Part shown: positions 10,190 through 40,656 of the stretch, one piece after another
Layout of the letters: each line of letters begins with the position of its first letter
How positions within the stretch are numbered: the stretch's first letter is position 1
Origin: Pseudomonadota bacterium
GTDB taxonomy: Bacteria > Bdellovibrionota_F > JAHFAK01 > JBDREC01
Length of the DNA: 64,000 bases
Assembly (NCBI GenBank): GCA_043820105.1
Contig: JBDREC010000004.1
Location: 69,682 to 133,681, forward strand
Direction of reading: 5' to 3'
Notes under the pieces: generated by a model
Seen by the model: only the letters and a program-made list of their open reading frames with translations
What the model was told of the DNA's origin: nothing
The model's database searches: none
Translations under genes and position numbers: made by a program

Positions 10190-10368
10190 ATGAAACAAGG
10201 ACTTTTAGCAAAACTAATTTTCAGCTCTTTTGTTTTTCTAATATTCTTTTCAAGTTTGAATTAATAAATGAAAATGAAGCAAAGAGTTGGCCAGAGGGCA
10301 AAATTGTAGATATTTTTACTAAAAGACCTTTTGTGTTTAACAAGTTAAAATGTGTTAACTTATTTTAA
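10190..10368 (+). pseudogene. Probable remnant of a secreted protein (signal peptide plus out-of-frame C-terminal CxNLF tail)
   Basis: 10190-10264 encodes MKQGLLAKLIFSSFVFLIFFSSLN*. Another frame (10261-10368) ends FNKLKCVNLF*. Confidence 0.45.
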
Positions 10369-10369
10369 A

Positions 10370-11011
10370 TCAATTAACAGGTATTTGCTCTCTTTCACTT
10401 ACAGGAATTTCATTATCAAAAGATGAAAAATCTGTTGTATCAGAAATAGTTCCAGCTTCTCCTGTTCCAGCGCCTTCATATCGAATACCTTCATCTGTAA
10501 CACTTGTTGCTTTAAAACGACTTGCTGCTTGTAAAGAGGCATCAATATTAGATGAAGTTGAAATTCCAAGATCACCAGATGAAGAGAATAAAGCCAATAA
10601 AGCCTTTTTGTCAAAAGTCTGATTAGGTTCAGGTATTATAATATCTGAAAATGGACCATCCATTGAAGTAATAGATATACTACATTGAGCTTCACAAACA
10701 GCTGCTTGCGAAGGACAATTGCAATTGCATTTAGATCCCAGGTTTGCAAGTTCTAGTTCCGCCCTTTCAAGGTCTCTTTTAGCTCTTTGCATTTCCTCTG
10801 CTGCTAAATTAGATAAATATTCTGAGTTGTCAATTCCAGCAGAGTGATCTTGTTGAACAATTGTAATTTCCTCTCTCATTTTCTGGTAAGCTTCAGACAA
10901 GACTTGTTGTTCATCAGCACTTAGTCTGGATTCATTGTTTGCTAAAAGATTTGTTGATAAACATAAGGTTAATACCATAAAGATACTAAATTTGATAGAT
11001 TTCATAAACAT
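10370..11011 (-). CDS. Secreted hypothetical protein with coiled coil and Cys-rich motif
   Basis: GGAGGG RBS before ATG 11011; signal peptide; coiled coil followed by KCNCNCPSQAAVCEAQC. Confidence 0.75.
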   Translation of the reverse strand: MFMKSIKFSIFMVLTLCLSTNLLANNESRLSADEQQVLSEAYQKMREEITIVQQDHSAGIDNSEYLSNLAAEEMQRAKRDLERAELELANLGSKCNCNCPSQAAVCEAQCSISITSMDGPFSDIIIPEPNQTFDKKALLALFSSSGDLGISTSSNIDASLQAASRFKATSVTDEGIRYEGAGTGEAGTISDTTDFSSFDNEIPVSEREQIPVN

Positions 11012-27946: not shown

Positions 27947-29278
27947 CTACTTCTGCACCTTCTTGCTCCAATCTATGATCTTCCCCATCACATTTTCAAC
28001 CTCATAGTAATCAAGCTTTAAGGCCCTGGATATTTTTTTATTTCTTTTTGATATTTCCAGCTCTCTTGTTTGATTGTAGATCTTTAGGCTGTTTTTTTTC
28101 TTTAAAATACCAATTTCTGATGAAAGTTTATTTCTTTCACTTATCAAATAAAGAATATCTGAATCAATTAGGTCTATTTTATTTCTCAAGACACTTATTT
28201 TTTTTAAATCATCAGCTTCTGTATCAAAAAACAGCATTTCCTGAGAAAGCATTTTATCTAAAATGACCAAGGCTAGCATTGCCTCTACAACTGGGACTAT
28301 TCGTGGGCAAATGCAAGGGTCATGTCTGCCTTTGATCTTAAGTTCTTTTTCTTCATTTAAATTATTAATAGTTTTTTGTTTTTTCAAAATAGAGGGAGTT
28401 GGTTTAACTGCAATTCTTATTTCAATATTATTGCCGTTGCTAATGCCACCTAAGATACCACCAGAGTTGTTTGATAAAAAACCTTCCTGATTCATTTGAT
28501 CATTGAATTTTGAGCCATGCATTTTAGCAGCTGAAAAACCTGCTCCTATTTCAACCCCTTTTACTGAACCAATGCTCATAAGTGCCTTGGAAATTTCAGC
28601 GTCAAGTTTTCCAAAAACAGGATCCCCCAAACCTCCTGGGCAATTTTCAATGATTGCTTTGACTATCCCACCACAGGAATCGTCCTGCGATGAAATTTCT
28701 TTAATATAAGTTTCCATTTCTTTTGCTTTATCTTTGTCTGGGCATTTAACTGGATTTTTATCAATTTCTAATAGATCAATTTTCTTTGCTTTAATATTTC
28801 CAACCTGTTCAGTAAAAGCATAAATCTTAATTTTACTTTTTTTTAAGATTTTTTGAGCTATGCTGCCTGCTATAACTCGAGCAGCAGTTTCTCTTCCAGA
28901 AGCTCGACCGCCGCCTCTATGATCATAGATTCCATATTTCATAAAGTAAGTGTAGTCTGCATGTCCTGGCCTAAAAACATTTTTTAAATTATCATAATCC
29001 TGGCTTTTTACATCTTTATTTTTGATTATTGCACAAATTGGTGTGCCTAAACTAAGACCGTTAAAGACGCCTGATAGAATTTCAATTTTATCATCTTCGC
29101 TTCGAGGGCTTGTAATCTTGTTTTGACCTGGTTTTCTTCTGTTTAATTGTTTTTGAATATCTGCTATAGAAATTTCAATTCCAGGTCTTAATCCCAAAAT
29201 CAAAACTCCAACAGCTTTTCCATGAGATTCACCAAAGCTAATTATTTTAACATTATTTCCAAATATATTACCAGACAT
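27947..29278 (-). CDS. aroC: Chorismate synthase fused to a C-terminal AroQ-type chorismate mutase
   Basis: GESHG, RPGHAD, RASGRETA and RHDPC motifs; extra ~90 aa LRNKIDLID..IL.LISERN...IG.LK....IY...RE. Confidence 0.93.
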   Translation of the reverse strand: MSGNIFGNNVKIISFGESHGKAVGVLILGLRPGIEISIADIQKQLNRRKPGQNKITSPRSEDDKIEILSGVFNGLSLGTPICAIIKNKDVKSQDYDNLKNVFRPGHADYTYFMKYGIYDHRGGGRASGRETAARVIAGSIAQKILKKSKIKIYAFTEQVGNIKAKKIDLLEIDKNPVKCPDKDKAKEMETYIKEISSQDDSCGGIVKAIIENCPGGLGDPVFGKLDAEISKALMSIGSVKGVEIGAGFSAAKMHGSKFNDQMNQEGFLSNNSGGILGGISNGNNIEIRIAVKPTPSILKKQKTINNLNEEKELKIKGRHDPCICPRIVPVVEAMLALVILDKMLSQEMLFFDTEADDLKKISVLRNKIDLIDSDILYLISERNKLSSEIGILKKKNSLKIYNQTRELEISKRNKKISRALKLDYYEVENVMGKIIDWSKKVQK

Positions 29279-29387: not shown

Positions 29388-29456
29388 TTAAAATTGACAT
29401 ATTGCGAAAAAAATGTATTTTTTTTTAAAATTAAACTTAGATTGGATGAGCTTTTG

Positions 29457-30638
29457 ATGGGAAACTTAAAAATTCTAAAGTACTTTCTTTTTTTCATTAT
29501 TTGTATTGTTTTTATTTCATGTAAGCAAAATAATCCATATCAATATCATTATAATAAGAAACATACTTGTATTAATAATTATATTCCACATGTTGTGCCA
29601 AGTCCGCCTATTGTTCCTGTTTATTATTCAGGACCTATTATTACAGTACCTATTGTTCCAGCGCCGCCTATTATTATTCAGCACAAAGTGGTTTATAAAA
29701 AATCAAAATCTAAAGCCAGGTTTAAGGTTAGGTTAGAAGAAGTAAAAAACGAAGATCCTCAAGATCCCGCAGAACCAGACCCAGTTGATCCAGATCCAAT
29801 AGAACCAGACCCAGTTGATCCAGATCCAATAGAACCAGACCCAGTGGAGCCAGATCCAATAGAACCAGACCCAGTGGAGCCAGATCCAATAGAACCAGAC
29901 CCAGTGGAGCCAGACCCAGTTGATCCAGATCCAGTTGATCCAAATCCAGTTGATCCAGATCCAGTTGACCCAGATCCAGTTGATCCTGATCCCGGCGATG
30001 CTGGGCCTTGTGATTCACATACAAATATGTCTCTTTATCCTGATGATTTTGAAGGATGTCCTTATGATGTTCCTGATAAGTTTATTATGGCTGATTTTGT
30101 GAATAATCCTTCAGGGGTTACTAGTGAGAATAATCAAGTAAATATCCTGGTTCCAAATGGGGATTTTGTTAAAACTGAAATATCAAGAAAAGGCATGAAT
30201 TGCCCAGGTGATGAAATTACAAATTTTGTTAAGGCTAGAATTAGAGATAATAAAGGCATAATTCCAGATAATGATACGGTTATTAAAGCCTTTGATGTTT
30301 ATTATAAAATGCCCACAATTAACAGTGTAATAAGCATTGGAGCAGGTAGATTAGAAATGGATAAGGCCTGGATTGAATATCAGGGTCCTGTTAATAACGC
30401 TGGATCAGGAACACGTTATATTACGGGTTTCTTGAAAAAAATTAGTGGACAAAATAAGGTTACATTTACTTTAGTTGATCTATATCCTTCAAGTTCAGTA
30501 GCTGAAATGTATTGTGTTGACCAAAAGCACAAGATTTGGAGTGAGTTTTCAGATATTGATTTTTCAGATATTAAAAAAGCCAGTATTGATTCTAAGAAAA
30601 ACAAGGCGGATCGTGAGAAGGTTTGGAGGGCTTATTAG
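29457..30638 (+). CDS. Lipoprotein with Pro-rich and (D/E)PDP(V/I) repeat stalk
   Basis: Start moved to ATG 29457 (TTGACA at 29394 is more likely a -35 box); lipobox FISC. Confidence 0.8.
   Translation: MGNLKILKYFLFFIICIVFISCKQNNPYQYHYNKKHTCINNYIPHVVPSPPIVPVYYSGPIITVPIVPAPPIIIQHKVVYKKSKSKARFKVRLEEVKNEDPQDPAEPDPVDPDPIEPDPVDPDPIEPDPVEPDPIEPDPVEPDPIEPDPVEPDPVDPDPVDPNPVDPDPVDPDPVDPDPGDAGPCDSHTNMSLYPDDFEGCPYDVPDKFIMADFVNNPSGVTSENNQVNILVPNGDFVKTEISRKGMNCPGDEITNFVKARIRDNKGIIPDNDTVIKAFDVYYKMPTINSVISIGAGRLEMDKAWIEYQGPVNNAGSGTRYITGFLKKISGQNKVTFTLVDLYPSSSVAEMYCVDQKHKIWSEFSDIDFSDIKKASIDSKKNKADREKVWRAY
29772..29993 (+). repeat. Coding 15/30-bp tandem repeat (EPDPV/DPDPI)
   Basis: gaaccagacccagttgatccagatccaata units. 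Confidence 0.95.
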
Positions 30639-32847: not shown

Positions 32848-34824
32848 ATGAGGAGCTCAAAACTATTTATTCTAATCTCAGTTGTTATTCTAGCTTCCTT
32901 TTTACTTGTTTCTTGTAAGAAACAAATTCCACAAGCAGAAGAACAAGCAGCTGCAACAAAAGATACAAAAGCTTCAAGCACAGTATTGCAAGGCGGCGGA
33001 GCCAGTAGTGCATTGGGTGGTGGAGACATGAATCTGTCTACACAACCTCCAGGCACAGAAGAAGAAGCCCCTCCTGCACCAGGTGAAGAAGAAGCAGATG
33101 AAGATCCTGAAGATATTACTATTGTTAAACCTCCTGTAACTATTTTTAAGTCTGTACCTTGTGGCGACGGCGATCCAGATCCAGATCCAGTAACACCAGA
33201 TCCAGTAACACCAGATCCAGTAACACCAGAACCAGTAACACCAGAACCAGTAACACCAGAACCAGTAACACCAGGACCAGTAACACCAGAACCAGTAACA
33301 CCAGAACCAGTAACACCAGAGCCAGTTGTTCCTCAACAATGTGAAGTTAAATTAAAAACAAACGATATTGATCCAAATGTGAAAGCTCTATTAAAAGAAG
33401 GGGTCCCACAACTTCTACCTTTTGATATTAATAAAGAAGTTATTACAGATCAGGTTAGATCTGAAATTCTAACAAAAGTATATCCTTTTGCCCAGGCTTG
33501 TGTAAATTACGGAATGGAAGTTGTTTTGATCGGACACGCTTCTAAATCAAGTACAATTGAATATAATTTAGATTTATCCTTCGAAAGAGCTAATTCATAT
33601 AGAGAATTGTTAATAGAAGAAGGTATTTTAAGTGATGCTGGATTAAGGACACATGCTTATGATGAATTTAAAAAATATGGATTAGATGATTATTCCATTT
33701 TAAGACCACTAACAGAACAAAAATTATGGATTATTCCAGCAGGTGAGGTGATTGAAGGTTATGTTGCCCTGCAACAAGATGATCCTGATGTTTTTATTGC
33801 TATGGATACGGAACATTATGAAGGATGTACAGAAGATTCAGATCCTGACTGCTTAAATAGGATTGTGAGAGTAAAATGTATGTCTAGGGCTAAGATTCAT
33901 AAAGAAGTTAAAAAGACAGAAAAAAGGTATCTAGCTGCTTTAGAAGCTGAAAAAGTTAGCAACAAATGTAAAGTTCTCCAAAAATATGAAGGTATTATTA
34001 AAGCTTCATCCCCTGCTTGGATGTTTGACAGAAATGGATCAAATTGCGATGGAACTAGAGAAGCCAGTGTCAGGACAAATGCTATAGGAAGAAATAATTT
34101 ACATTTTGCTCTTGTTGATCAATTTAATGCAATTGTTAGGTTCCAGACTGTATTTAATGAATTATTAACTCCAGGACAGGGAATTCTTAATAATACTGTT
34201 TTTACTGATCCTTATGTTGGAGAAGAAGAAGTATGGACAGAAGTTTTAAGAAGATATCTTTATGCAATAGCCGAAGAAGGTGTTGGGATAAAAGAATTTG
34301 AAAAATGTACTTTCTTACACGGCGGTTATATGGCAGGTATTGCTGATGATGGTAATGACGATAATTGCAAGCTCTTAACAGGAAGAAACCTTCCAATTGA
34401 AATGTGTGATGAGGCTGATCCTTCAAGAACATGTACTGTTTCAGTAAGTTTTAAGGGCGGATTGTCAAAATACGAAGCTGATGCATTAATGTATACAATC
34501 ATGTTATATCAAGAACAAATTCTCAATAGAATTATTGGCAATGATACAGACAAAAGAGGCAGATGGTTAGCCAAAGCTGCTATTAAGATGGAAGGCGATT
34601 TGGAAAAATGGGGATTTTACAAAATTGATGTTGAAGGTGAAAAGTCAATGACTGTAGCTTCAGTTGAATGTCCTAAATCAATTGCATACACAGAGGATGC
34701 ACATTATTCTAGCGAAGATACATATCCAAAATATTGCTGGGATTATAATGGAAAACCTCTATTAGGTAGATTAAGACCAGATTTTAATTACAATTGTTTC
34801 CCAAACAACAATATTGGGAACTAA
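32848..34824 (+). CDS. Lipoprotein with PVTPE stalk, OmpA-like domain and Cys-rich C-terminal region
   Basis: AAGGAG RBS; lipobox LVSC; IGHAS...YNLDLSFERA...NRIV. Confidence 0.8.
   Translation: MRSSKLFILISVVILASFLLVSCKKQIPQAEEQAAATKDTKASSTVLQGGGASSALGGGDMNLSTQPPGTEEEAPPAPGEEEADEDPEDITIVKPPVTIFKSVPCGDGDPDPDPVTPDPVTPDPVTPEPVTPEPVTPEPVTPGPVTPEPVTPEPVTPEPVVPQQCEVKLKTNDIDPNVKALLKEGVPQLLPFDINKEVITDQVRSEILTKVYPFAQACVNYGMEVVLIGHASKSSTIEYNLDLSFERANSYRELLIEEGILSDAGLRTHAYDEFKKYGLDDYSILRPLTEQKLWIIPAGEVIEGYVALQQDDPDVFIAMDTEHYEGCTEDSDPDCLNRIVRVKCMSRAKIHKEVKKTEKRYLAALEAEKVSNKCKVLQKYEGIIKASSPAWMFDRNGSNCDGTREASVRTNAIGRNNLHFALVDQFNAIVRFQTVFNELLTPGQGILNNTVFTDPYVGEEEVWTEVLRRYLYAIAEEGVGIKEFEKCTFLHGGYMAGIADDGNDDNCKLLTGRNLPIEMCDEADPSRTCTVSVSFKGGLSKYEADALMYTIMLYQEQILNRIIGNDTDKRGRWLAKAAIKMEGDLEKWGFYKIDVEGEKSMTVASVECPKSIAYTEDAHYSSEDTYPKYCWDYNGKPLLGRLRPDFNYNCFPNNNIGN
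33181..33330 (+). repeat. Coding 15-bp tandem repeat CCAGA(T/A)CCAGTAACA x~10
   Basis: Direct reading; encodes P(D/E)PVT. Confidence 0.95.
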
Positions 34825-34855: not shown

Positions 34856-34891
34856 AAAAAGGCCTGCTAATTTAATTAGCGGGCCTCTTTT
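34856..34891 (+). terminator. Rho-independent terminator
   Basis: Stem AGGCCTGCTAAT/ATTAGCGGGCCT, then CTTTT; A-tract upstream. Confidence 0.8.
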
Positions 34892-34961
34892 GTATTATTT
34901 GCCTTGCAATTTCAAAGTCAGTGTTTTAAAATACATGGTATGTGAATTATTTGAGGCTATT

Positions 34962-36185
34962 ATGGATAGAATATACTTCAAGCAATTATCAGAATATCTT
35001 GAATATTTTCCATGTGTTGCGATTTTGGGTGCAAGACAATGTGGAAAAACAACCCTTCTTTCATTTTTAGATACAAAATGGAAAATATTTGATCTTGAAA
35101 AAGGTCAAGATTTTGACCTTATAAATAATGACCCTGATTTATTTTTTCGCTTAAATGATGAAAATGTAGCTATAGACGAAGCCCAGTTTTTGCCAAGCCT
35201 TTTCTCATCTTTAAGAGTGGCTATTGATAAAAACAGAAAAAAAACAGGGCGATTTATTATTACTGGTTCTTCTTCTCCTGACTTAGTGAAATCAATTTCT
35301 GAATCTTTGGCAGGACGAATTGGAATAATAGAAATGTCTCCATTTACTTTTAGTGAAATTAGTCAATCATTTGAGAGTAATTTCACTAAATGCCTGCTTC
35401 AAAAAGATTATTTTAAAAACAATTATCATGACTTTAAACCCAAATCTAAGGATAAAAATATTTATAAATACTTGTTGCAAGGAGGCTATCCAGAACCGTG
35501 CTTAAAAAATTCTGAAAAATTTCATACTATGTGGATGCAAAATTATATAAAGACCTATTTGGAGCGAGATTTATTAAAGCTTTTTCCAGGGATTAATGAA
35601 AATAGATACAGAGCCTTTCTTCAATCTATATCGAATATTTCTGGAAATGTAATTAATTATTCAGAAATAGCCACAGTTTTAGGTGTTTCACAGCCAACAG
35701 TTAGAGATTATTTTGACATTGCTCATAAAAGTTTTTTGTTTAGAAAAATTTCAAGCTTTTCTAAAGATGCAGTTAAAAGAATTATCAAGCACCCTAAGGG
35801 ATATTATAGTGATAGTGGTTTGTTGTGCTATTTATTAAGAATTAGGGATGAGAACTCTTTATTGACCCATCCAAAGATTGGAAATATTTGGGAGGGAATG
35901 GTTATAGAAGAAATCATCCGGACATTAAAATCGAATTCAATTTCTTTTGATTATTATTACTATAGAACCTCATCAGGTGCTGAAGTTGACCTTGTATTAG
36001 AATCAGATTTTGGTTTAATTCCAATTGAAATAAAGCATACAAAAAAAATAAATAAAAAAGAACTTAGAAGTTTAAGTGATTTTATTAATGAAAGAAAATG
36101 TAAAATGGGATATATTATTAGTAATTCTGAAAACCCGCAAATGATAACAGAAAATATAGCTTCTTTACCTTTTAATTATCTCTAG
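34962..36185 (+). CDS. AAA+ ATPase with DUF4143-like C-terminus
   Basis: GARQCGKTT, IDEAQ, ITGSS, SLAGR, GGYP and YYRTSSGAEVDLV...PIEIK motifs; GAGG RBS before ATG 34962. Confidence 0.9.
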   Translation: MDRIYFKQLSEYLEYFPCVAILGARQCGKTTLLSFLDTKWKIFDLEKGQDFDLINNDPDLFFRLNDENVAIDEAQFLPSLFSSLRVAIDKNRKKTGRFIITGSSSPDLVKSISESLAGRIGIIEMSPFTFSEISQSFESNFTKCLLQKDYFKNNYHDFKPKSKDKNIYKYLLQGGYPEPCLKNSEKFHTMWMQNYIKTYLERDLLKLFPGINENRYRAFLQSISNISGNVINYSEIATVLGVSQPTVRDYFDIAHKSFLFRKISSFSKDAVKRIIKHPKGYYSDSGLLCYLLRIRDENSLLTHPKIGNIWEGMVIEEIIRTLKSNSISFDYYYYRTSSGAEVDLVLESDFGLIPIEIKHTKKINKKELRSLSDFINERKCKMGYIISNSENPQMITENIASLPFNYL

Positions 36186-36214: not shown

Positions 36215-36718
36215 TTAGTAGCAAGTAACAATGAGTTTAATGAAATGATCTAGATTGTTATATGTTTCTGGAGTGCAATTAATGCTGAAATCAGCGGCTT
36301 TTGAATAGTGTTTTTTTCTTTCATTAAATAAAGCTTCAATTTCATCTTTTGATTTATTTTTTAATAAAGGTCTTTTGCTACAATTTTCTATATATTGCCA
36401 TAAATCATTAAAAGCCCAAGTTAAATAAACAACCTTGCCATTTTCTTTTAAGGCCATTTTATTTTCTTCATCTAATATTGCCCCGCCTCCAGTTGCAATT
36501 ACAACATTATCAAGTTTTGAAACTCTCAGAATTGTTGTTTTTTCAAGTTGCCTAAAATGACCTTCAGAATGCTTTTCAAAGATCTGACTAATTGTCATTC
36601 CAGCATTGTTTTCAATTTCCCCATCAATGTCATAAAAATCTCTTTTTAAGTGTGATGCAAGCCTTTGCCCAACTATTGTTTTGCCACACCCCATGAAACC
36701 GATTAATATTATGTTCAT
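36215..36718 (-). CDS. aroK: Shikimate kinase
   Basis: GFMGCGKT, FRQLE, ATGGG and RPLL motifs. Confidence 0.95.
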   Translation of the reverse strand: MNIILIGFMGCGKTIVGQRLASHLKRDFYDIDGEIENNAGMTISQIFEKHSEGHFRQLEKTTILRVSKLDNVVIATGGGAILDEENKMALKENGKVVYLTWAFNDLWQYIENCSKRPLLKNKSKDEIEALFNERKKHYSKAADFSINCTPETYNNLDHFIKLIVTCY

Positions 36719-36726
36719 TGTTGCTC

Positions 36727-36807
36727 CAGTTTAGTATTTATTATTCATTATTCGGTGTTCAGTTTTCAGTGTTTTCCAGAAACCATAACCCAGCAGCCAT
36801 AACCCTC
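36727..36807 (-). repeat. aroA-aroK spacer made almost entirely of heptamer units (GT-rich arm then AC-rich arm)
   Basis: Minus strand gagggtt atggctg ctgggtt atggttt ... aaacact gaaaact gaacacc gaataat gaataat aaatact. Confidence 0.7.
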
Positions 36808-38127
36808 TTATTTTAACTTGTCTAATAGTTCCCAAAAACCAGGAAATGATTTGTTTACACATTTCTTGTTTTTTACATAAATCTTATCTGGAAATATCTT
36901 TTCCAATATTCCAAAACTCATAGCCATCCTATGATCATTATAAGTTTCAATATTAATTTTACTCTTAATTCCTAATCCTTGTTCCCCTGTTCCCATGTTC
37001 CCTTGTGCTCTTTCATAATTTTGAATTTTGAATTTTGAATTTTGAATTCCTTTTACCTTTATCCAATCTCGCCCAGTCTCCACGCAATCCCCAAACTTTA
37101 AAAGCTCATTCTCCAAAGCCTGCAATCTATCAGTTTCCTTTAATCGCAAATTATATACATTTTTAATATAAGTTGTCCCTTGCGCAAACAAAGCAAGAAC
37201 AGCCAGCGTTTGCACAAGATCAGGCATTTTATTCATATCAACTGTAATACCTTTAAGCTTGCTGGGCTTTATCTTAAGGTAAGTTTTACCACATTCCGTT
37301 ATAGCTCCCATTTTTTTAAGCACATTTATAAATTGCACATCACCTTGATTCGATTCAGTCCCAAGCCCATTAATTTTCAAACCATTTCCCCTTACGCCGT
37401 ACGCTGTACGCTGTACGCTGTACGCCAAAAAATACGATGCTGCTGATGCATCAGGTTCTATAATATATTTATTCTTTGATCTATACATCTGTTTTTTTAT
37501 AATATATTTTCTATAATTTCTATTTTCTACCTTAACTCCAAAATCTTGCATAACTTTTAAGGTCATATCTATATAAGGCTTTGATGTAATTTTGCCTTTT
37601 ACATTAATCGTAATTTGATTTTCGCAGTATGGCGAGATCAGTAAAATCGCAGATAAAAACTGACTGCTAATTGAAGAATTAATAGTTATAGAACCATTTA
37701 TATATCCATTTGAATTTATGTTTATTGGAAAAGTATCATTTTGAATTTTGAATTTTGAATTTTGAATTTTACTTAAAGCTTCTAGTATTGCATAAACTGG
37801 CCTGTTTTTCATATGTCCTTTGCAATTAATCTTAGTCTTTCCTGCAATCAAATGAGCAAGTGCAATTATAAATCGTGTCGTTGTTCCTGCTTCCCCTGTA
37901 CTTATAACCTTATTTGTCTGCCTTAAACCCCCACCAAAAACAAACACTTCTTTTCTCTTAATCCCAATCCTAATCTTAATCCCTAATCTGACTAAATTTT
38001 CAAGCATCCCTTGCACATCATCACAAAAATTCACATTTGTAAGGCAAGTCGTACCTTTAGCCAAAGCCGCACAAATTAAGGCTCTATTAATTATACTTTT
38101 TGATCCTGGTAAACTTAATACTTGCAT
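36808..38127 (-). CDS. aroA: EPSP synthase carrying in-frame tandem-repeat segments
   Basis: PGSKS, GEAGT, SSQF, DAS, RLKETDR, DHRMAM and KSFP motifs intact. Confidence 0.95.
   Translation of the reverse strand: MQVLSLPGSKSIINRALICAALAKGTTCLTNVNFCDDVQGMLENLVRLGIKIRIGIKRKEVFVFGGGLRQTNKVISTGEAGTTTRFIIALAHLIAGKTKINCKGHMKNRPVYAILEALSKIQNSKFKIQNDTFPININSNGYINGSITINSSISSQFLSAILLISPYCENQITINVKGKITSKPYIDMTLKVMQDFGVKVENRNYRKYIIKKQMYRSKNKYIIEPDASAASYFLAYSVQRTAYGVRGNGLKINGLGTESNQGDVQFINVLKKMGAITECGKTYLKIKPSKLKGITVDMNKMPDLVQTLAVLALFAQGTTYIKNVYNLRLKETDRLQALENELLKFGDCVETGRDWIKVKGIQNSKFKIQNYERAQGNMGTGEQGLGIKSKINIETYNDHRMAMSFGILEKIFPDKIYVKNKKCVNKSFPGFWELLDKLK
36979..37048 (-). repeat. In-frame compound array in aroA: (CAAAATT) x4.5 plus octamer x4
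   Basis: 37017-37048 aattttg x4 + aatt; 36979-37010 minus strand gagcacaa gggaacat gggaacag gggaacaa. Confidence 0.92.
37393..37427 (-). repeat. In-frame heptamer array in aroA, (C)AGCGTA family x5
   Basis: Plus strand tacgccg tacgctg tacgctg tacgctg tacgcca; peptide AYSVQRTAYGVR. Confidence 0.92.
37737..37771 (-). repeat. In-frame heptamer array in aroA, CAAAATT family x5
   Basis: Plus strand cattttg aattttg aattttg aattttg aatttta; peptide KIQNSKFKIQN. Confidence 0.92.
37958..37988 (-). repeat. In-frame hexamer array in aroA (NNAATC on plus strand)
   Basis: ttaatc ccaatc ctaatc ttaatc c ctaatc; peptide LGIKIRIGIK. Confidence 0.65.
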
Positions 38128-39563
38128 AGCATTTTCCTGATTTGCTTTGTATATCTGACCTTGTGACCAGTAAAGAGTTCAAATTGCTTCAGTCCTTGAT
38201 AAATAAAAAAATCTAGACCATCGAATATAATATTATTCTTACCTTTCTTTGCAAGCTTAATTAAGGGAGTTTCAATTGGTCGATAATTGAGTTCAATAAT
38301 GATTTTATTGTTTAGTGCAGGAAGGCTAAAAGGAAAGCCTTTGTAAATTATGCCAACACTTGTACAGTTAATCAATATATCAAAATCATGAGCCTTGATG
38401 TCAAAAAGTGGTTTTACTAAAATATTGTATCTTTTTTCTAGAAGCTTTGCCTTTTCTAAAGTTCTATTAAAAAGTGTAATTTCTAAACTTCTATTATTTA
38501 AAGCCTTAACAAAAGAAGATGCAACTGCACCTGCCCCTAATATGGCGATTTTCTTTTTACTTAAATCTTTAATCTTTTTCAAAAAACATTCTAAGGCATA
38601 ATTATCTGTATTATCGCAAAACACGTTTTTATTTTTAACAGAAACTGTATTTACAGACTCAAAATTTGTGCTCTTAAAATAATTTATTATTAGCTTTTTA
38701 TATGGAGTAGTAATTGATAAACCAAAAAATCTGAGTTCTAAATTCTTAATTCTATCAATTAAATCTCTAAACTCTAAGCTTGATTTCACAAGTATTGGCA
38801 CATAAATACCGTTTATTCCATACTTGTGAAAAAGGTAATTAAATAAAACGTAACCAAGACTTTGCTCAACAGGATTTCCAATCAGGCCATATAGTTTTGC
38901 CTTTGGTTTAAGCCTTTTGATTGAATAAATATCTGTCAGTTTTTTAATATCAACTTGTCCCTGGGCTGTCTTTTTTTCCTGATTAATTGAAGCGTATGTC
39001 CATTTAGATCCATATGAAAGGCATAAGATCCTACTAATATTTGAAGTTTCACCCATGCAAAAAGAAATAATATTCTTTTTATATTTATTCTTTAGTTTTT
39101 TAATATTGGCTAAGACTTTAAAATTATCAGTTGAGTTCTTACCTTGATAAATAAATTTTAAGGCCGAGATTTGAGAGGCTGTTTCTTTATTAAGATTAGG
39201 AGTATGATTAAGATCAAGGATTTTAGAATGGGACGATAATAGGATTTTTGAGTTAATATTTTTTGCTCGTAGAACTTTGATAATAGAATTATAGTTTTTG
39301 TTTAACTCAATATCAATATAATCAGTTTTTCGAGGTTTTAATTTAAGTATTATTTCAATAAATTGTTTTTTATCAAATTTGAATTTGCCACCCTGTGAAG
39401 TTGATCGCAATGTGTAAATAATGGGCATTTTATATAAAACAGGAAAAGAATATAGGGAAAAGTTATTAAGATTCATTAAATCAAGGCGAAGTTCTATAAT
39501 ATCAGCGAGCTTTGTTTCTGGCTTGTTTAGGTCAGCTGTTGTTGTAAGAGAAAGTGCTATCAA
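38115..39563 (-). CDS. aroDE: Bifunctional type I 3-dehydroquinate dehydratase / shikimate dehydrogenase
   Basis: N-terminal IELRLD, R...QGG, YIDIE, SSH, MGE, AQGQ; C-terminal GNPV..SL, TTPYK, VNT, NTD, GAGA, NRT. Confidence 0.88.
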   Translation of the reverse strand: MIALSLTTTADLNKPETKLADIIELRLDLMNLNNFSLYSFPVLYKMPIIYTLRSTSQGGKFKFDKKQFIEIILKLKPRKTDYIDIELNKNYNSIIKVLRAKNINSKILLSSHSKILDLNHTPNLNKETASQISALKFIYQGKNSTDNFKVLANIKKLKNKYKKNIISFCMGETSNISRILCLSYGSKWTYASINQEKKTAQGQVDIKKLTDIYSIKRLKPKAKLYGLIGNPVEQSLGYVLFNYLFHKYGINGIYVPILVKSSLEFRDLIDRIKNLELRFFGLSITTPYKKLIINYFKSTNFESVNTVSVKNKNVFCDNTDNYALECFLKKIKDLSKKKIAILGAGAVASSFVKALNNRSLEITLFNRTLEKAKLLEKRYNILVKPLFDIKAHDFDILINCTSVGIIYKGFPFSLPALNNKIIIELNYRPIETPLIKLAKKGKNNIIFDGLDFFIYQGLKQFELFTGHKVRYTKQIRKMLCKY

Positions 39564-39573
39564 AAAATGGTCC

Positions 39574-40656
39574 TTAAATAATGTTTTTTAATTTTGATAA
39601 AGGGATGTCGTTTTTTACAAAGCTATGTCCAATTGATTTTAATAGGGCCATAGTAATTTTATTGCCCTTGTTTTTTTTGTCATGACCGATTTCTTTTAAT
39701 AGCAAAGCTTTTGTTTTGAGATCAATATTTTTTAAAAGACCATACTCATATAAAAGATTATTATGTCGGTTCATTTGAAAATCGCTTAAATATCCAAGGC
39801 TATTAGAAATAAGAGCTGCTATTTGCATGCCATAGGCCACAGCAAAACCATGACGGATTTTATTTTTAATTTTTATTTGCTCTAAGGCATGACCAAAGGT
39901 GTGACCATAGTTTAAAAGCTTTCTTGATAATTTGCCATTAGAAGCTTCAAACTGATCATTTTCACAAATCATTTTCTTATTATTTATGGATCTGTAAATA
40001 ATTTCATTTAAAAGCTTTTTGTCTTTATTTAATATTTTTATTTTGTTTTCTTCGAATAATTTAAAAAGATCTTTATCAAGGATTATTCCGTATTTTATAG
40101 CTTCAGCAAGGCCACTTAAATATTGCATCTTATTAAGTTTGTCTAGATAATCCGAATTTATAATTATAATATTAGGCTGATAAAAAGAGCCCAGGAAATT
40201 TTTTCTAAGGGAATGGTTAGCAAGATAATTTACCCCTACTTTTCCACCAACAGAAGAGTCAACTTGAGCGAGTAAACTAGTTGGAATTTGTATTAAGTTA
40301 ATTCCTCTCATATATAAGGAGGCAGCGAATCCAGCAATGTCGCCAGTAACACCGCCACCTAAAGCTATTAGGCATGAATATCGATCAAAGTTTAGCTTAA
40401 GCAACTTATCCAAAATCATTTCTACTGTTTTAAAGGTTTTACTTTTTTCACCACTTGGAAATGCAATTAGCTTTTCATTTTTTAGCTTTAATTTATTTTT
40501 GAGCCCTAGGCCATAAAGCTTTTTAATGTTTGCATCACAAACTATCGCGATATTTGAATATTCTTTTTGCAGTTTAAGTAAAATATCTTCTGGTTTGCTT
40601 GAAAAGAATATTTCTGAATTTCTTCCCGCATATTTACATAAAAGTTTTTGGGTCAT
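39574..40656 (-). CDS. aroB: 3-dehydroquinate synthase
   Basis: GEKSK, GGGVTGD, PTSLLAQVDSSVGGK and LNYGHTFGHALE motifs. Confidence 0.96.
   Translation of the reverse strand: MTQKLLCKYAGRNSEIFFSSKPEDILLKLQKEYSNIAIVCDANIKKLYGLGLKNKLKLKNEKLIAFPSGEKSKTFKTVEMILDKLLKLNFDRYSCLIALGGGVTGDIAGFAASLYMRGINLIQIPTSLLAQVDSSVGGKVGVNYLANHSLRKNFLGSFYQPNIIIINSDYLDKLNKMQYLSGLAEAIKYGIILDKDLFKLFEENKIKILNKDKKLLNEIIYRSINNKKMICENDQFEASNGKLSRKLLNYGHTFGHALEQIKIKNKIRHGFAVAYGMQIAALISNSLGYLSDFQMNRHNNLLYEYGLLKNIDLKTKALLLKEIGHDKKNKGNKITMALLKSIGHSFVKNDIPLSKLKNII

Follow-up and report, generated by a model that had tools for sequence, protein, structure and literature searches.

Members of genome-wide tandem-repeat families lie in frame within an EPSP synthase gene of a Pseudomonadota bacterium

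Introduction

We have analysed the aroA gene of a Pseudomonadota bacterium (assembly GCA_043820105.1), which is located at 36808-38127 on the minus strand of a 64,000-nucleotide stretch of contig JBDREC010000004.1 (hereafter, the window). Five short tandem-repeat arrays are found at four sites of this gene, every one of them in frame, and these arrays are members of genome-wide repeat families that resemble the short tandemly repeated repetitive (STRR) sequences. We consider that aroA probably encodes a working EPSP synthase and has acquired several copies of the tiny tandem-repeat elements of its genome. Bacterial heptanucleotide tandem repeats have been known since about 1990, and their origin and function are without an accepted account. 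The aroA gene provides a clear view of such repeats entering coding DNA, with several families in one essential enzyme. What is distinctive here is the density of arrays in one enzyme, a length-neutral array that is predicted to encode a folded segment, and evidence for spread as copies of fixed length. Judged from the sequence and a predicted structure, the case appears to show how such repeats can create segments of a protein, or take the place of existing ones, while the enzyme suffers no visible damage.

Repeat arrays in aroA

Arrays were detected in the window and in the whole genome with Tandem Repeats Finder (TRF). The units of the aroA arrays on the coding strand are TTCAAAA (twice), GCGTACA, GGGAACAN and ATTRRG, and the peptides that the arrays contribute to AroA are LGIKIRIGIK, KIQNSKFKIQN (twice), AYSVQRTAYGVR and RAQGNMGTGEQG. 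When arranged in the order of the units (sites 2, 4a, 3, 4b and 1), the encoded peptides read KIQNSKFKIQN, IQNSKFKIQN, AYSVQRTAYGV, QGNMGTGEQ and LGIKIRIGIK. All sites are given on the minus strand.

Site 2 is a perfect (TTCAAAA)4.7 array of 33 nucleotides (nt) at 37738-37770, which forms codons K120-N130 and is reported by TRF with period 7, 100% matches and a score of 66. Site 3, also 33 nt long, is a (GCGTACA)n array at 37393-37425 that encodes A235-V245 (period 7, 4.7 copies, 96% matches, score 59); it ends in the variant GCGTACGGCGTA, and this terminal variant also ends other copies of the GCGTACA family. Site 4 is a compound insertion at 36955-37050, which corresponds to G360-I391, adds about 23 amino acids (aa) and faces a 23-column gap in the homologues. 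It contains the canonical 32-mer AATT(CAAAATT)4 at 37017-37048 (site 4a; period 7, 4.6 copies, 100% matches, score 64), the octamer GGGAACAN repeated 3.4 times at 36980-37006 (site 4b; period 8, 89% matches, score 40) and, 3' of the octamer array, a second GGATTA-type stretch, GGATTAGGAATTAAG, at 36964-36978, which encodes GLGIK (G384-K388; site 4c). Site 4c lies within clearly inserted sequence, and the related strings GGATTAGG and GGATTAAG occur 91 and 203 times in the genome, respectively. Site 1 is a hexamer-type (ATTRRG)n array at 37957-37986 that encodes L48-K57; it is length-neutral, weak and partly ancestral. TRF places it at 37959-37988 with period 6, 4.8 copies, 76% matches and a score of 37, and with 420 period-6 rows in the 3.8-Mb genome such a hexamer array is weak when taken alone.

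Chance does not reproduce the heptamer arrays. Dinucleotide-preserving shuffling of the window, repeated 100 times, yielded no (TTCAAAA)3 with at most one mismatch, compared with four observed occurrences, and no (GCGTACA)3 with at most two mismatches, compared with two; all observed occurrences are in aroA. The neighbouring aro genes carry only marginal TRF rows, at 38736-38754 in aroDE (score 31) and 39857-39878 in aroB (score 30), and aroK has no TRF row. A preliminary description of this DNA had reported five in-frame arrays at four sites of aroA, catalytic motifs that stayed intact and an absence of such arrays from the neighbouring aro genes. The TRF rows and the open frame agree with the first of these statements, the invariant active-site columns described below with the second, and the marginal scores of 30-31 with the third.

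The TTCAAAA arrays of sites 2 and 4a share orientation and reading frame and are spaced exactly 720 nt apart; accordingly, they form a 31-nt perfect in-frame direct repeat. Recombination between 37017-37048 and 37738-37770 would remove 240 codons and keep the frame.

Identity and conservation of the enzyme

The aroA frame is open over 439 codons without a stop or shift. Its product matches PF00275 (EPSP_synthase) over the full length, with residues 4-434 on profile positions 11-416 of 417 (E 2.9e-84). In a search of the PDB, E values of 2e-86 to 6e-85 marked the Klebsiella, Vibrio and E. coli enzymes, all of class I, as the nearest solved relatives, and class II enzymes were far weaker (CP4, E 1e-19; S. 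pneumoniae, E 7e-18). The gene is present in single copy, with one match in the genome, and belongs to a one-strand operon with the order aroB (39574-40656), fused aroD-aroE (38115-39563), aroA and aroK (36215-36718).

In an alignment of the window AroA with 19 homologues (A1), 69 columns are invariant across the 20 sequences. In window numbering, these columns include K10, S11, R15, G81, T82, R109, S154, S155, Q156 and S182, and further on D303, K330, E331, D333, R334, H399, R400 and K426. The first group aligns with K22, S23, R27, G96, T97, R124, S169, S170, Q171 and S197 of the E. coli enzyme and the second with D313, K340, E341, D343, R344, H385, R386 and K411, most of which are substrate-binding or catalytic residues. 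The offset between the two numberings was confirmed on the PDB alignment.

An AlphaFold2 model of AroA built on A1 has a mean predicted local distance difference test (pLDDT) score of 87.9 and a predicted template modelling (pTM) score of 0.89. Foldseek compared it with liganded EPSP synthases of E. coli and Klebsiella (1g6s, 2qfq, 7tm5) at template modelling (TM) scores of 0.86-0.89, and the predicted structure has the two-domain inside-out alpha/beta fold. Considering the conserved residues and the modelled fold, we infer that the aroA product is a working class I EPSP synthase, and the gene does not look decayed.

Insertion and replacement at the four sites

The effect of each array on protein length was judged against the 19 homologues of A1, which are 41-47% identical to the window AroA, and against solved structures. 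The clearest case of replacement is site 2. Between the conserved residues L118 and P134 there are 15 residues in the window AroA, whereas the nearest homologues have 14 residues there and the E. coli group has 16, so that the net change is +1 or -1 aa, and the perfect array encodes 11 of these 15 residues. Since 11 of the 15 residues are array-encoded at unchanged length, resident codons appear to have been lost. Three homologues have five extra residues in this region, which indicates that the segment tolerates changes in length. At site 3, a 6-column gap is found in all 19 homologues and in the PDB alignments, while the array comprises 11 codons, giving a net gain of 6 aa. At site 4, the 23-column gap is again present in 19 of 19 homologues, and the PDB alignments break at 359/392. 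Site 1 aligns without gaps and without net length change, and its LGIKI is the homologue consensus; accordingly, at most RIGIK is new there. Site 1 had been a candidate for a further overwritten site and was downgraded in view of its weak array and its ancestral-looking LGIKI.

On the basis of these comparisons, replacement of resident sequence by the array is supported at site 2, partly supported at site 3 and not convincingly indicated at site 1. The preliminary description had proposed that the repeats can replace as well as insert sequence, which thus holds for site 2 with its 11 of 15 residues and in part for site 3, where an 11-aa array adds 6 aa, and is not supported for site 1. Its comparison with E. 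coli AroA had suggested length-neutral sites 1 and 2 and insertions of roughly 6 and 24 aa at sites 3 and 4; A1 and the PDB alignments agree, with no net change at the first two sites, +6 aa at the third and about +23 aa at the fourth. It had also counted four repeat families in the gene. All of them are real genome-wide families, with the reservation that the hexamer of site 1 is weak as an array.

When the arrays are mapped onto the model, sites 1-3 are predicted as strand or helix and site 4 as a disordered loop. Site 1 contains a strand at 51-54 in a block with pLDDT 91-95. Site 2 would form the end of helix 112-122 and a strand at 125-128 (block pLDDT 75), and site 3 would prolong helix 227-242, with a pLDDT of 77 for block 241-250. 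No secondary structure is modelled at 360-390, and pLDDT falls below 50 at residues 370-388. Because the homologues in A1 lack the inserted parts, low model confidence is expected there. Site 4 is predicted to be a disordered surface loop of about 30 aa.

Genome-wide repeat population

The source genome is a 3.81-Mb draft of 113 contigs with 32% G+C and 93% completeness. Period 7 is its commonest tandem period, with 1139 of 4871 TRF rows. At period 7 there are 261 perfect runs with three or more units, compared with 105 for period 4, 15 for period 5, 71 for period 6 and 13 for period 8, and among longer periods 0, 1, 0 and 4 for periods 9, 10, 11 and 12, respectively. Of the period-7 rows, 1123 have a 7-nt consensus, and these reduce to 171 canonical units, of which the largest families are AAGTGGT (163 rows), AATAATT (102), AAAATTC (73), AATACTG (63), AATAATC (51) and ACAGCGT (47). 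AAAATTC is the unit that gives KIQNSKF and ACAGCGT the unit that gives AYSVQRT. Octamer families (AACAAGGG, 58 rows; AACAAGAG, 43 rows) and hexamer families (AAGATT, 51 rows; AATCCT, 26 rows) are likewise present genome-wide. Near-perfect arrays of the two heptamers of aroA number 46 for TTCAAAA and 12 for GCGTACA. In terms of the properties by which STRR sequences are recognised, the genome thus has tandem 7-nt units in at least three copies beyond chance, an excess of period 7, several families and a mainly intergenic location, and the aroA arrays belong to these families. This membership, together with the presence of such arrays in at least ten other Pfam-recognised genes, is a point that the preliminary description did not contain.

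Such arrays are rare in genes. Open reading frames (ORFs) of at least 120 aa cover 85% of the genome bases. Near-perfect period-7 arrays number 377, and just 19 of them are located 20 codons or more inside a start-to-stop ORF of that size. Three of these 19 are in aroA, for which a uniform Poisson model gives P of about 8e-8 per gene and 2e-4 after multiplication by 2962 ORFs. A wider net, consisting of TRF rows of period 6-8 from families with at least eight members (893 arrays after merging), places 111 arrays inside 96 ORFs, with aroA first at four; many of the period-6 cases in this list are long linker-type coding repeats, which are of another kind. The ORFs contain only the stop-free strand of TTCAAAA; its complement gives TGA in all three frames.

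A 25-nt probe of the TTCAAAA family gave 39 overlapping matches in the source genome and two overlapping matches, from a single array, in one unrelated genome. The remaining 29 genomes, among them two of the same order and one of the same class, had no match. Among the genomes searched, the TTCAAAA family is lineage-specific.

Probable spread of the arrays by copying

When the members of the AAAATTC family were listed with their flanks, most proved to be one element, AATT(CAAAATT)n, in which n is mostly 3 or 4 and the flanks are unrelated. The exact 32-mer AATT(CAAAATT)4 occurs 15 times in the genome. A single-base variant of it, with G at position 15, is present in seven copies with unrelated flanks, and any other single variant in at most three; when the 23 variant copies were distributed at random over the 96 variants in 200,000 placements, a cell with at least seven copies arose in no case. 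The lengths of the arrays fall into groups of 26-28, 31-33, 38-39 and 45-46 nt, which correspond to whole units plus a constant remainder. Among the 12 GCGTACA arrays, eight hold the variant unit GCGTACGG towards or at the 3' end, the aroA copy included, and two further arrays have GGCGA directly in the flank; GCGTACAGCGTACGGCG has 20 genome occurrences. The octamer GGGAACAA often adjoins TTCAAAA arrays, as in the genes for MutL and a methyltransferase, at several intergenic loci and at aroA site 4. The shared 32-mer, the recurrent variant, the clustered lengths, the common GCGTACGG end and the octamer adjacency fit copying better than slippage at each locus.

The alternative that survives best is that each array grew in situ by slippage from a chance two-unit seed, without transfer between loci, and we regard it as unlikely. 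On the one hand, the unit number of AATT(CAAAATT)n does vary (n of at least 3 in 39 instances, at least 4 in 15 and at least 5 in three), the ancestral-looking LGIKI codons of site 1 already resemble the hexamer unit, and homologue P0004 has at site 2 an SKI left edge and an ND right edge like those of the window AroA. On the other hand, local growth would have to produce the same few units dozens of times over (46 and 12 near-perfect arrays for the two heptamers), a preferred length and phase, and one internal variant at the identical position in seven copies with unrelated flanks. In addition, a chance family-specific 14-mer seed in a conserved enzyme is not expected, given its absence from the shuffled sequences.

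Genes for S23p proteins (PF05635; 16 genome matches, 11 over the cut-off) were also considered. A G-variant 32-mer at G000:C30:10162-10193 (G000 being the source genome) lies 20 nt upstream of an S23p gene at 10214-10534, and it is the only one of the seven G-variant 32-mers that adjoins such a gene. No link between the S23p genes and the aroA arrays could be made.

Alternative explanations

The preliminary description had further suggested that changes in unit number could phase-vary aromatic biosynthesis, so that the heptamer arrays would switch EPSP synthase and aromatic amino-acid synthesis on and off by one-unit changes. Since 7 is not a multiple of 3, a one-unit change would indeed shift the frame, and three perfect or near-perfect arrays enlarge the target. 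A precedent is neuO of E. coli K1, which switches by means of a coding heptanucleotide repeat; as in aroA, the array is translated and the frame is kept at certain unit numbers only (PMC13001214). However, neuO is an accessory gene carried by a phage, and its array of 3-53 units, most often 20, lies at the 5' end and has been shown to switch (PMC13001214), whereas the aroA arrays have about 4.6-4.7 units, fewer than five in each, and lie internally in a single-copy core gene of a complete housekeeping operon. They are neither long nor located in an accessory or surface-related gene, the setting expected of a phase-variable contingency locus, and no out-of-frame allele was seen. The same arrays also occur in Mfd, MutL, HemE and ThiD, and their presence in DNA-repair and cofactor genes fits passive carriage. 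The suggestion is thus not supported, and we consider adaptive phase variation very unlikely. Unit gain or loss in the aroA arrays reads as a frameshift hazard rather than a demonstrated switch. A search of public sequencing runs found only small shares (0.14 and 0.11). In four runs, two short exact contigs of the organism were recovered, corresponding to 36700-36938 and 37546-37728, and neither of them spans an array.

Gene decay, in which repeats pile up under relaxed selection in the gene of an inactive enzyme, seems to us equally improbable. It would agree with aroA being the most array-loaded ORF (4 of 111 family arrays across 96 ORFs) and with the replacement of its GNAGT motif by GEAGT, but the 439-codon frame has stayed open, the 69 invariant columns include the substrate-binding residues, the fold is predicted with confidence except at site 4 and the pathway neighbours are intact. 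Least probable of all is an assembly artefact by mis-joining at repeats in the metagenome assembly: the draft genome is in 113 contigs and the TTTTGAA array is abundant in many contexts in public metagenomes, but the arrays are just 32-33 nt long, at each of the four sites the flanks keep both the order and the frame of AroA homologues, unlike a mis-join, and the two public contigs, which span no array, match the flanking gene exactly.

Several points weigh against our preferred reading, in which a working aroA received copied repeat elements. In terms of enzyme function, the GNAGT motif reads GEAGT in the window AroA, with E79 at the column of E. coli N94. In terms of spread, the copied-element model leaves the excess of arrays in aroA without explanation, the recurrent G variant could reflect a mutational hot spot, and a copying enzyme for the arrays was not found; a search of the genome, which is 93% complete, gave no match to RVT_1. 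In terms of ancestry, no AroA orthologue above 47% identity was found in the searched collections, apart from 49% for one fragment; the best identities were 44% in a near-length BLASTP search, 49% over 42% of the query among shorter proteins and 41% among 30 reference relatives. With no close orthologue, the ancestral state of each site is inferred from distant homologues only. The length of the site 2 region varies from 14 to 21 residues among homologues, and the apparent replacement at this site could be an insertion followed by a later deletion.

Proposed mechanism and significance

In our preferred explanation, the arrays are elements of STRR type, or "long simple sequence repeats", with units of 6-8 nt, usually about 3.7-4.7 of them and 25-33 nt in total. 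They would spread as copies with defined length and polarity, and nearly all of them lie in intergenic DNA. To survive in coding DNA, a copy would need a stop-free sense strand, a net length change that is a multiple of three and a tolerant site. Under these conditions, the arrays of site 4 may have produced a disordered surface loop, and the array of site 3 a longer helix with its following turn. The array of site 2 would have become the end of a helix and a strand at unchanged length, with the resident codons lost on arrival or soon after. Such a replacement could have occurred in one step, with another array serving as donor for patch-type conversion or as template for repair, as opposed to insertion with a compensating deletion.

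We propose, tentatively and with clearly less confidence, that the heptamer arrays overwrite resident DNA by copy-and-patch, that is, by short-patch conversion or templated gap repair from another array, seeded by microhomology of a few bases. This process would account for a net gain smaller than the array length in aroA and ThiD, down to zero at site 2. If overwriting rather than insertion and deletion is true, it would mean spread by conversion or templated repair and not by cut-and-paste, and would suggest one way in which uncultured lineages gain new protein sequence. Copy-and-patch repeats, if true, would then be a general source of new protein segments that are translated immediately, and some of these would be secondary-structure elements in essential enzymes. 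In practical terms, the arrays inflate apparent divergence in core-gene alignments and represent frameshift-prone sites in draft genomes.

Comparison with known repeats

Small dispersed repeats (SDR) were reportedly described by Elhai and colleagues in 2008 as dispersed elements of fixed length, a few tens of nt long, with unrelated flanks and linked with heptamer repeats. The present elements resemble them in that a short element of fixed length is found at many loci with unrelated flanks (15 exact 32-mers and seven variant copies). Unlike in SDR, the dispersed unit here is the heptamer array itself, of 32 nt, and its mobility is a candidate property only. Rickettsia palindromic elements (RPEs), as Ogata and colleagues are said to have reported in 2000, are palindromes of about 100-150 bp in protein-coding genes. 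Like RPEs, the aroA arrays are selfish-looking repeats that stand in frame in housekeeping proteins and would be tolerated at the surface. Unlike RPEs, they are direct tandem arrays of 25-33 nt and not palindromic, the TTCAAAA pair has the same orientation, and one of them is length-neutral and not an added loop.

STRR heptamers and long simple sequence repeats are said to go back to Mazel in 1990 and Mrazek in 2007. A summary in PMC4679880 covers both the STRR heptamers, which belong to heterocystous cyanobacteria, and the long simple sequence repeats found in prokaryotes. Similar to these, the present repeats are tandem 7-nt units with several families per genome, heptamers are the most abundant and most arrays are intergenic. 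They differ in their units, in their host lineage, represented by a low-G+C draft genome without genus- or family-level relatives in the reference set, and in that several arrays are translated in one core enzyme.

The TAACTGA repeats of marine Beggiatoaceae are closer in terms of coding sequence. According to MacGregor 2015 (PMC4679880), one orientation of this heptamer stops all frames and ORFs take the other. Heptamers of the aroA type are likewise mainly intergenic, limited in orientation within ORFs and present in ORFs as a minority. However, the ORF arrays treated there are mostly at protein ends or in hypothetical proteins, whereas the present arrays lie deep in the conserved domains of AroA, HemE and ThiD, and one of them appears to replace a structural segment. 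In the literature searched, in-frame heptamer arrays in ORFs were treated only by MacGregor 2015 (PMC4679880), besides papers on phase variation of neuO and hmw.

Other array-bearing genes and neighbouring features

A Pfam scan of 11 other array-bearing ORFs gave a family match for ten. In the Mfd gene (G000:C12:72762-76397), 34 nt separate two TTCAAAA arrays, which correspond to residues 377-390 and 401-411 and sit between the UvrB-interaction and RID domains, and the array of MutL is located in the inter-domain linker. Compared with solved structures, HemE is longer by about 20 residues where its array lies, and ThiD has eight extra residues for an array of 11 aa. Pfam matches were also obtained for a SAM methyltransferase, an SPL-family protein, an FAD-oxidase/CCG protein, a radical-SAM/TRAM protein and an M28 peptidase. 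For LeuRS, the array may fall upstream of the true start. At G000:C76:2186-5443, three adjacent ORFs with HemE in the centre each carry an AAAATTC or ACAGCGT array, forming a second local cluster of in-gene arrays.

In the spacer between aroA and aroK, a heptamer or 14-mer array at 36729-36773 (TRF rows 36729-36773 and 36735-36753) is an ordinary intergenic member of the repeat population. The window also contains 15-nt coding repeats on the plus strand, at 29772-29992 and 33181-33326, which encode (DPDPV/EPDPI)n and (PEPVT)n linkers in predicted lipoprotein-like ORFs at 29394-30638 and 32848-34824. These linker repeats are codon-phased and of a different kind from the heptamers.

The aromatic pathway context is intact. 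About 8 kb from aroA, at 27947-29278 on the minus strand, a fused AroC-chorismate mutase of 443 aa matches PF01264 at residues 11-344 and PF01817 (type II chorismate mutase) at 364-443. An AAA_14/DUF4143 ATPase gene lies at 34890-36185 (plus strand), just downstream of aroK and on the opposite strand. In the four public runs, which derive from groundwater and biofilm metagenomes, the (TTTTGAA)n array of 37006-37056 and 37720-37770 was found on many contigs with unrelated flanks, at a summed word depth of up to about 11,900; the TTTTGAA unit is thus common in other loci or organisms of the communities sampled.

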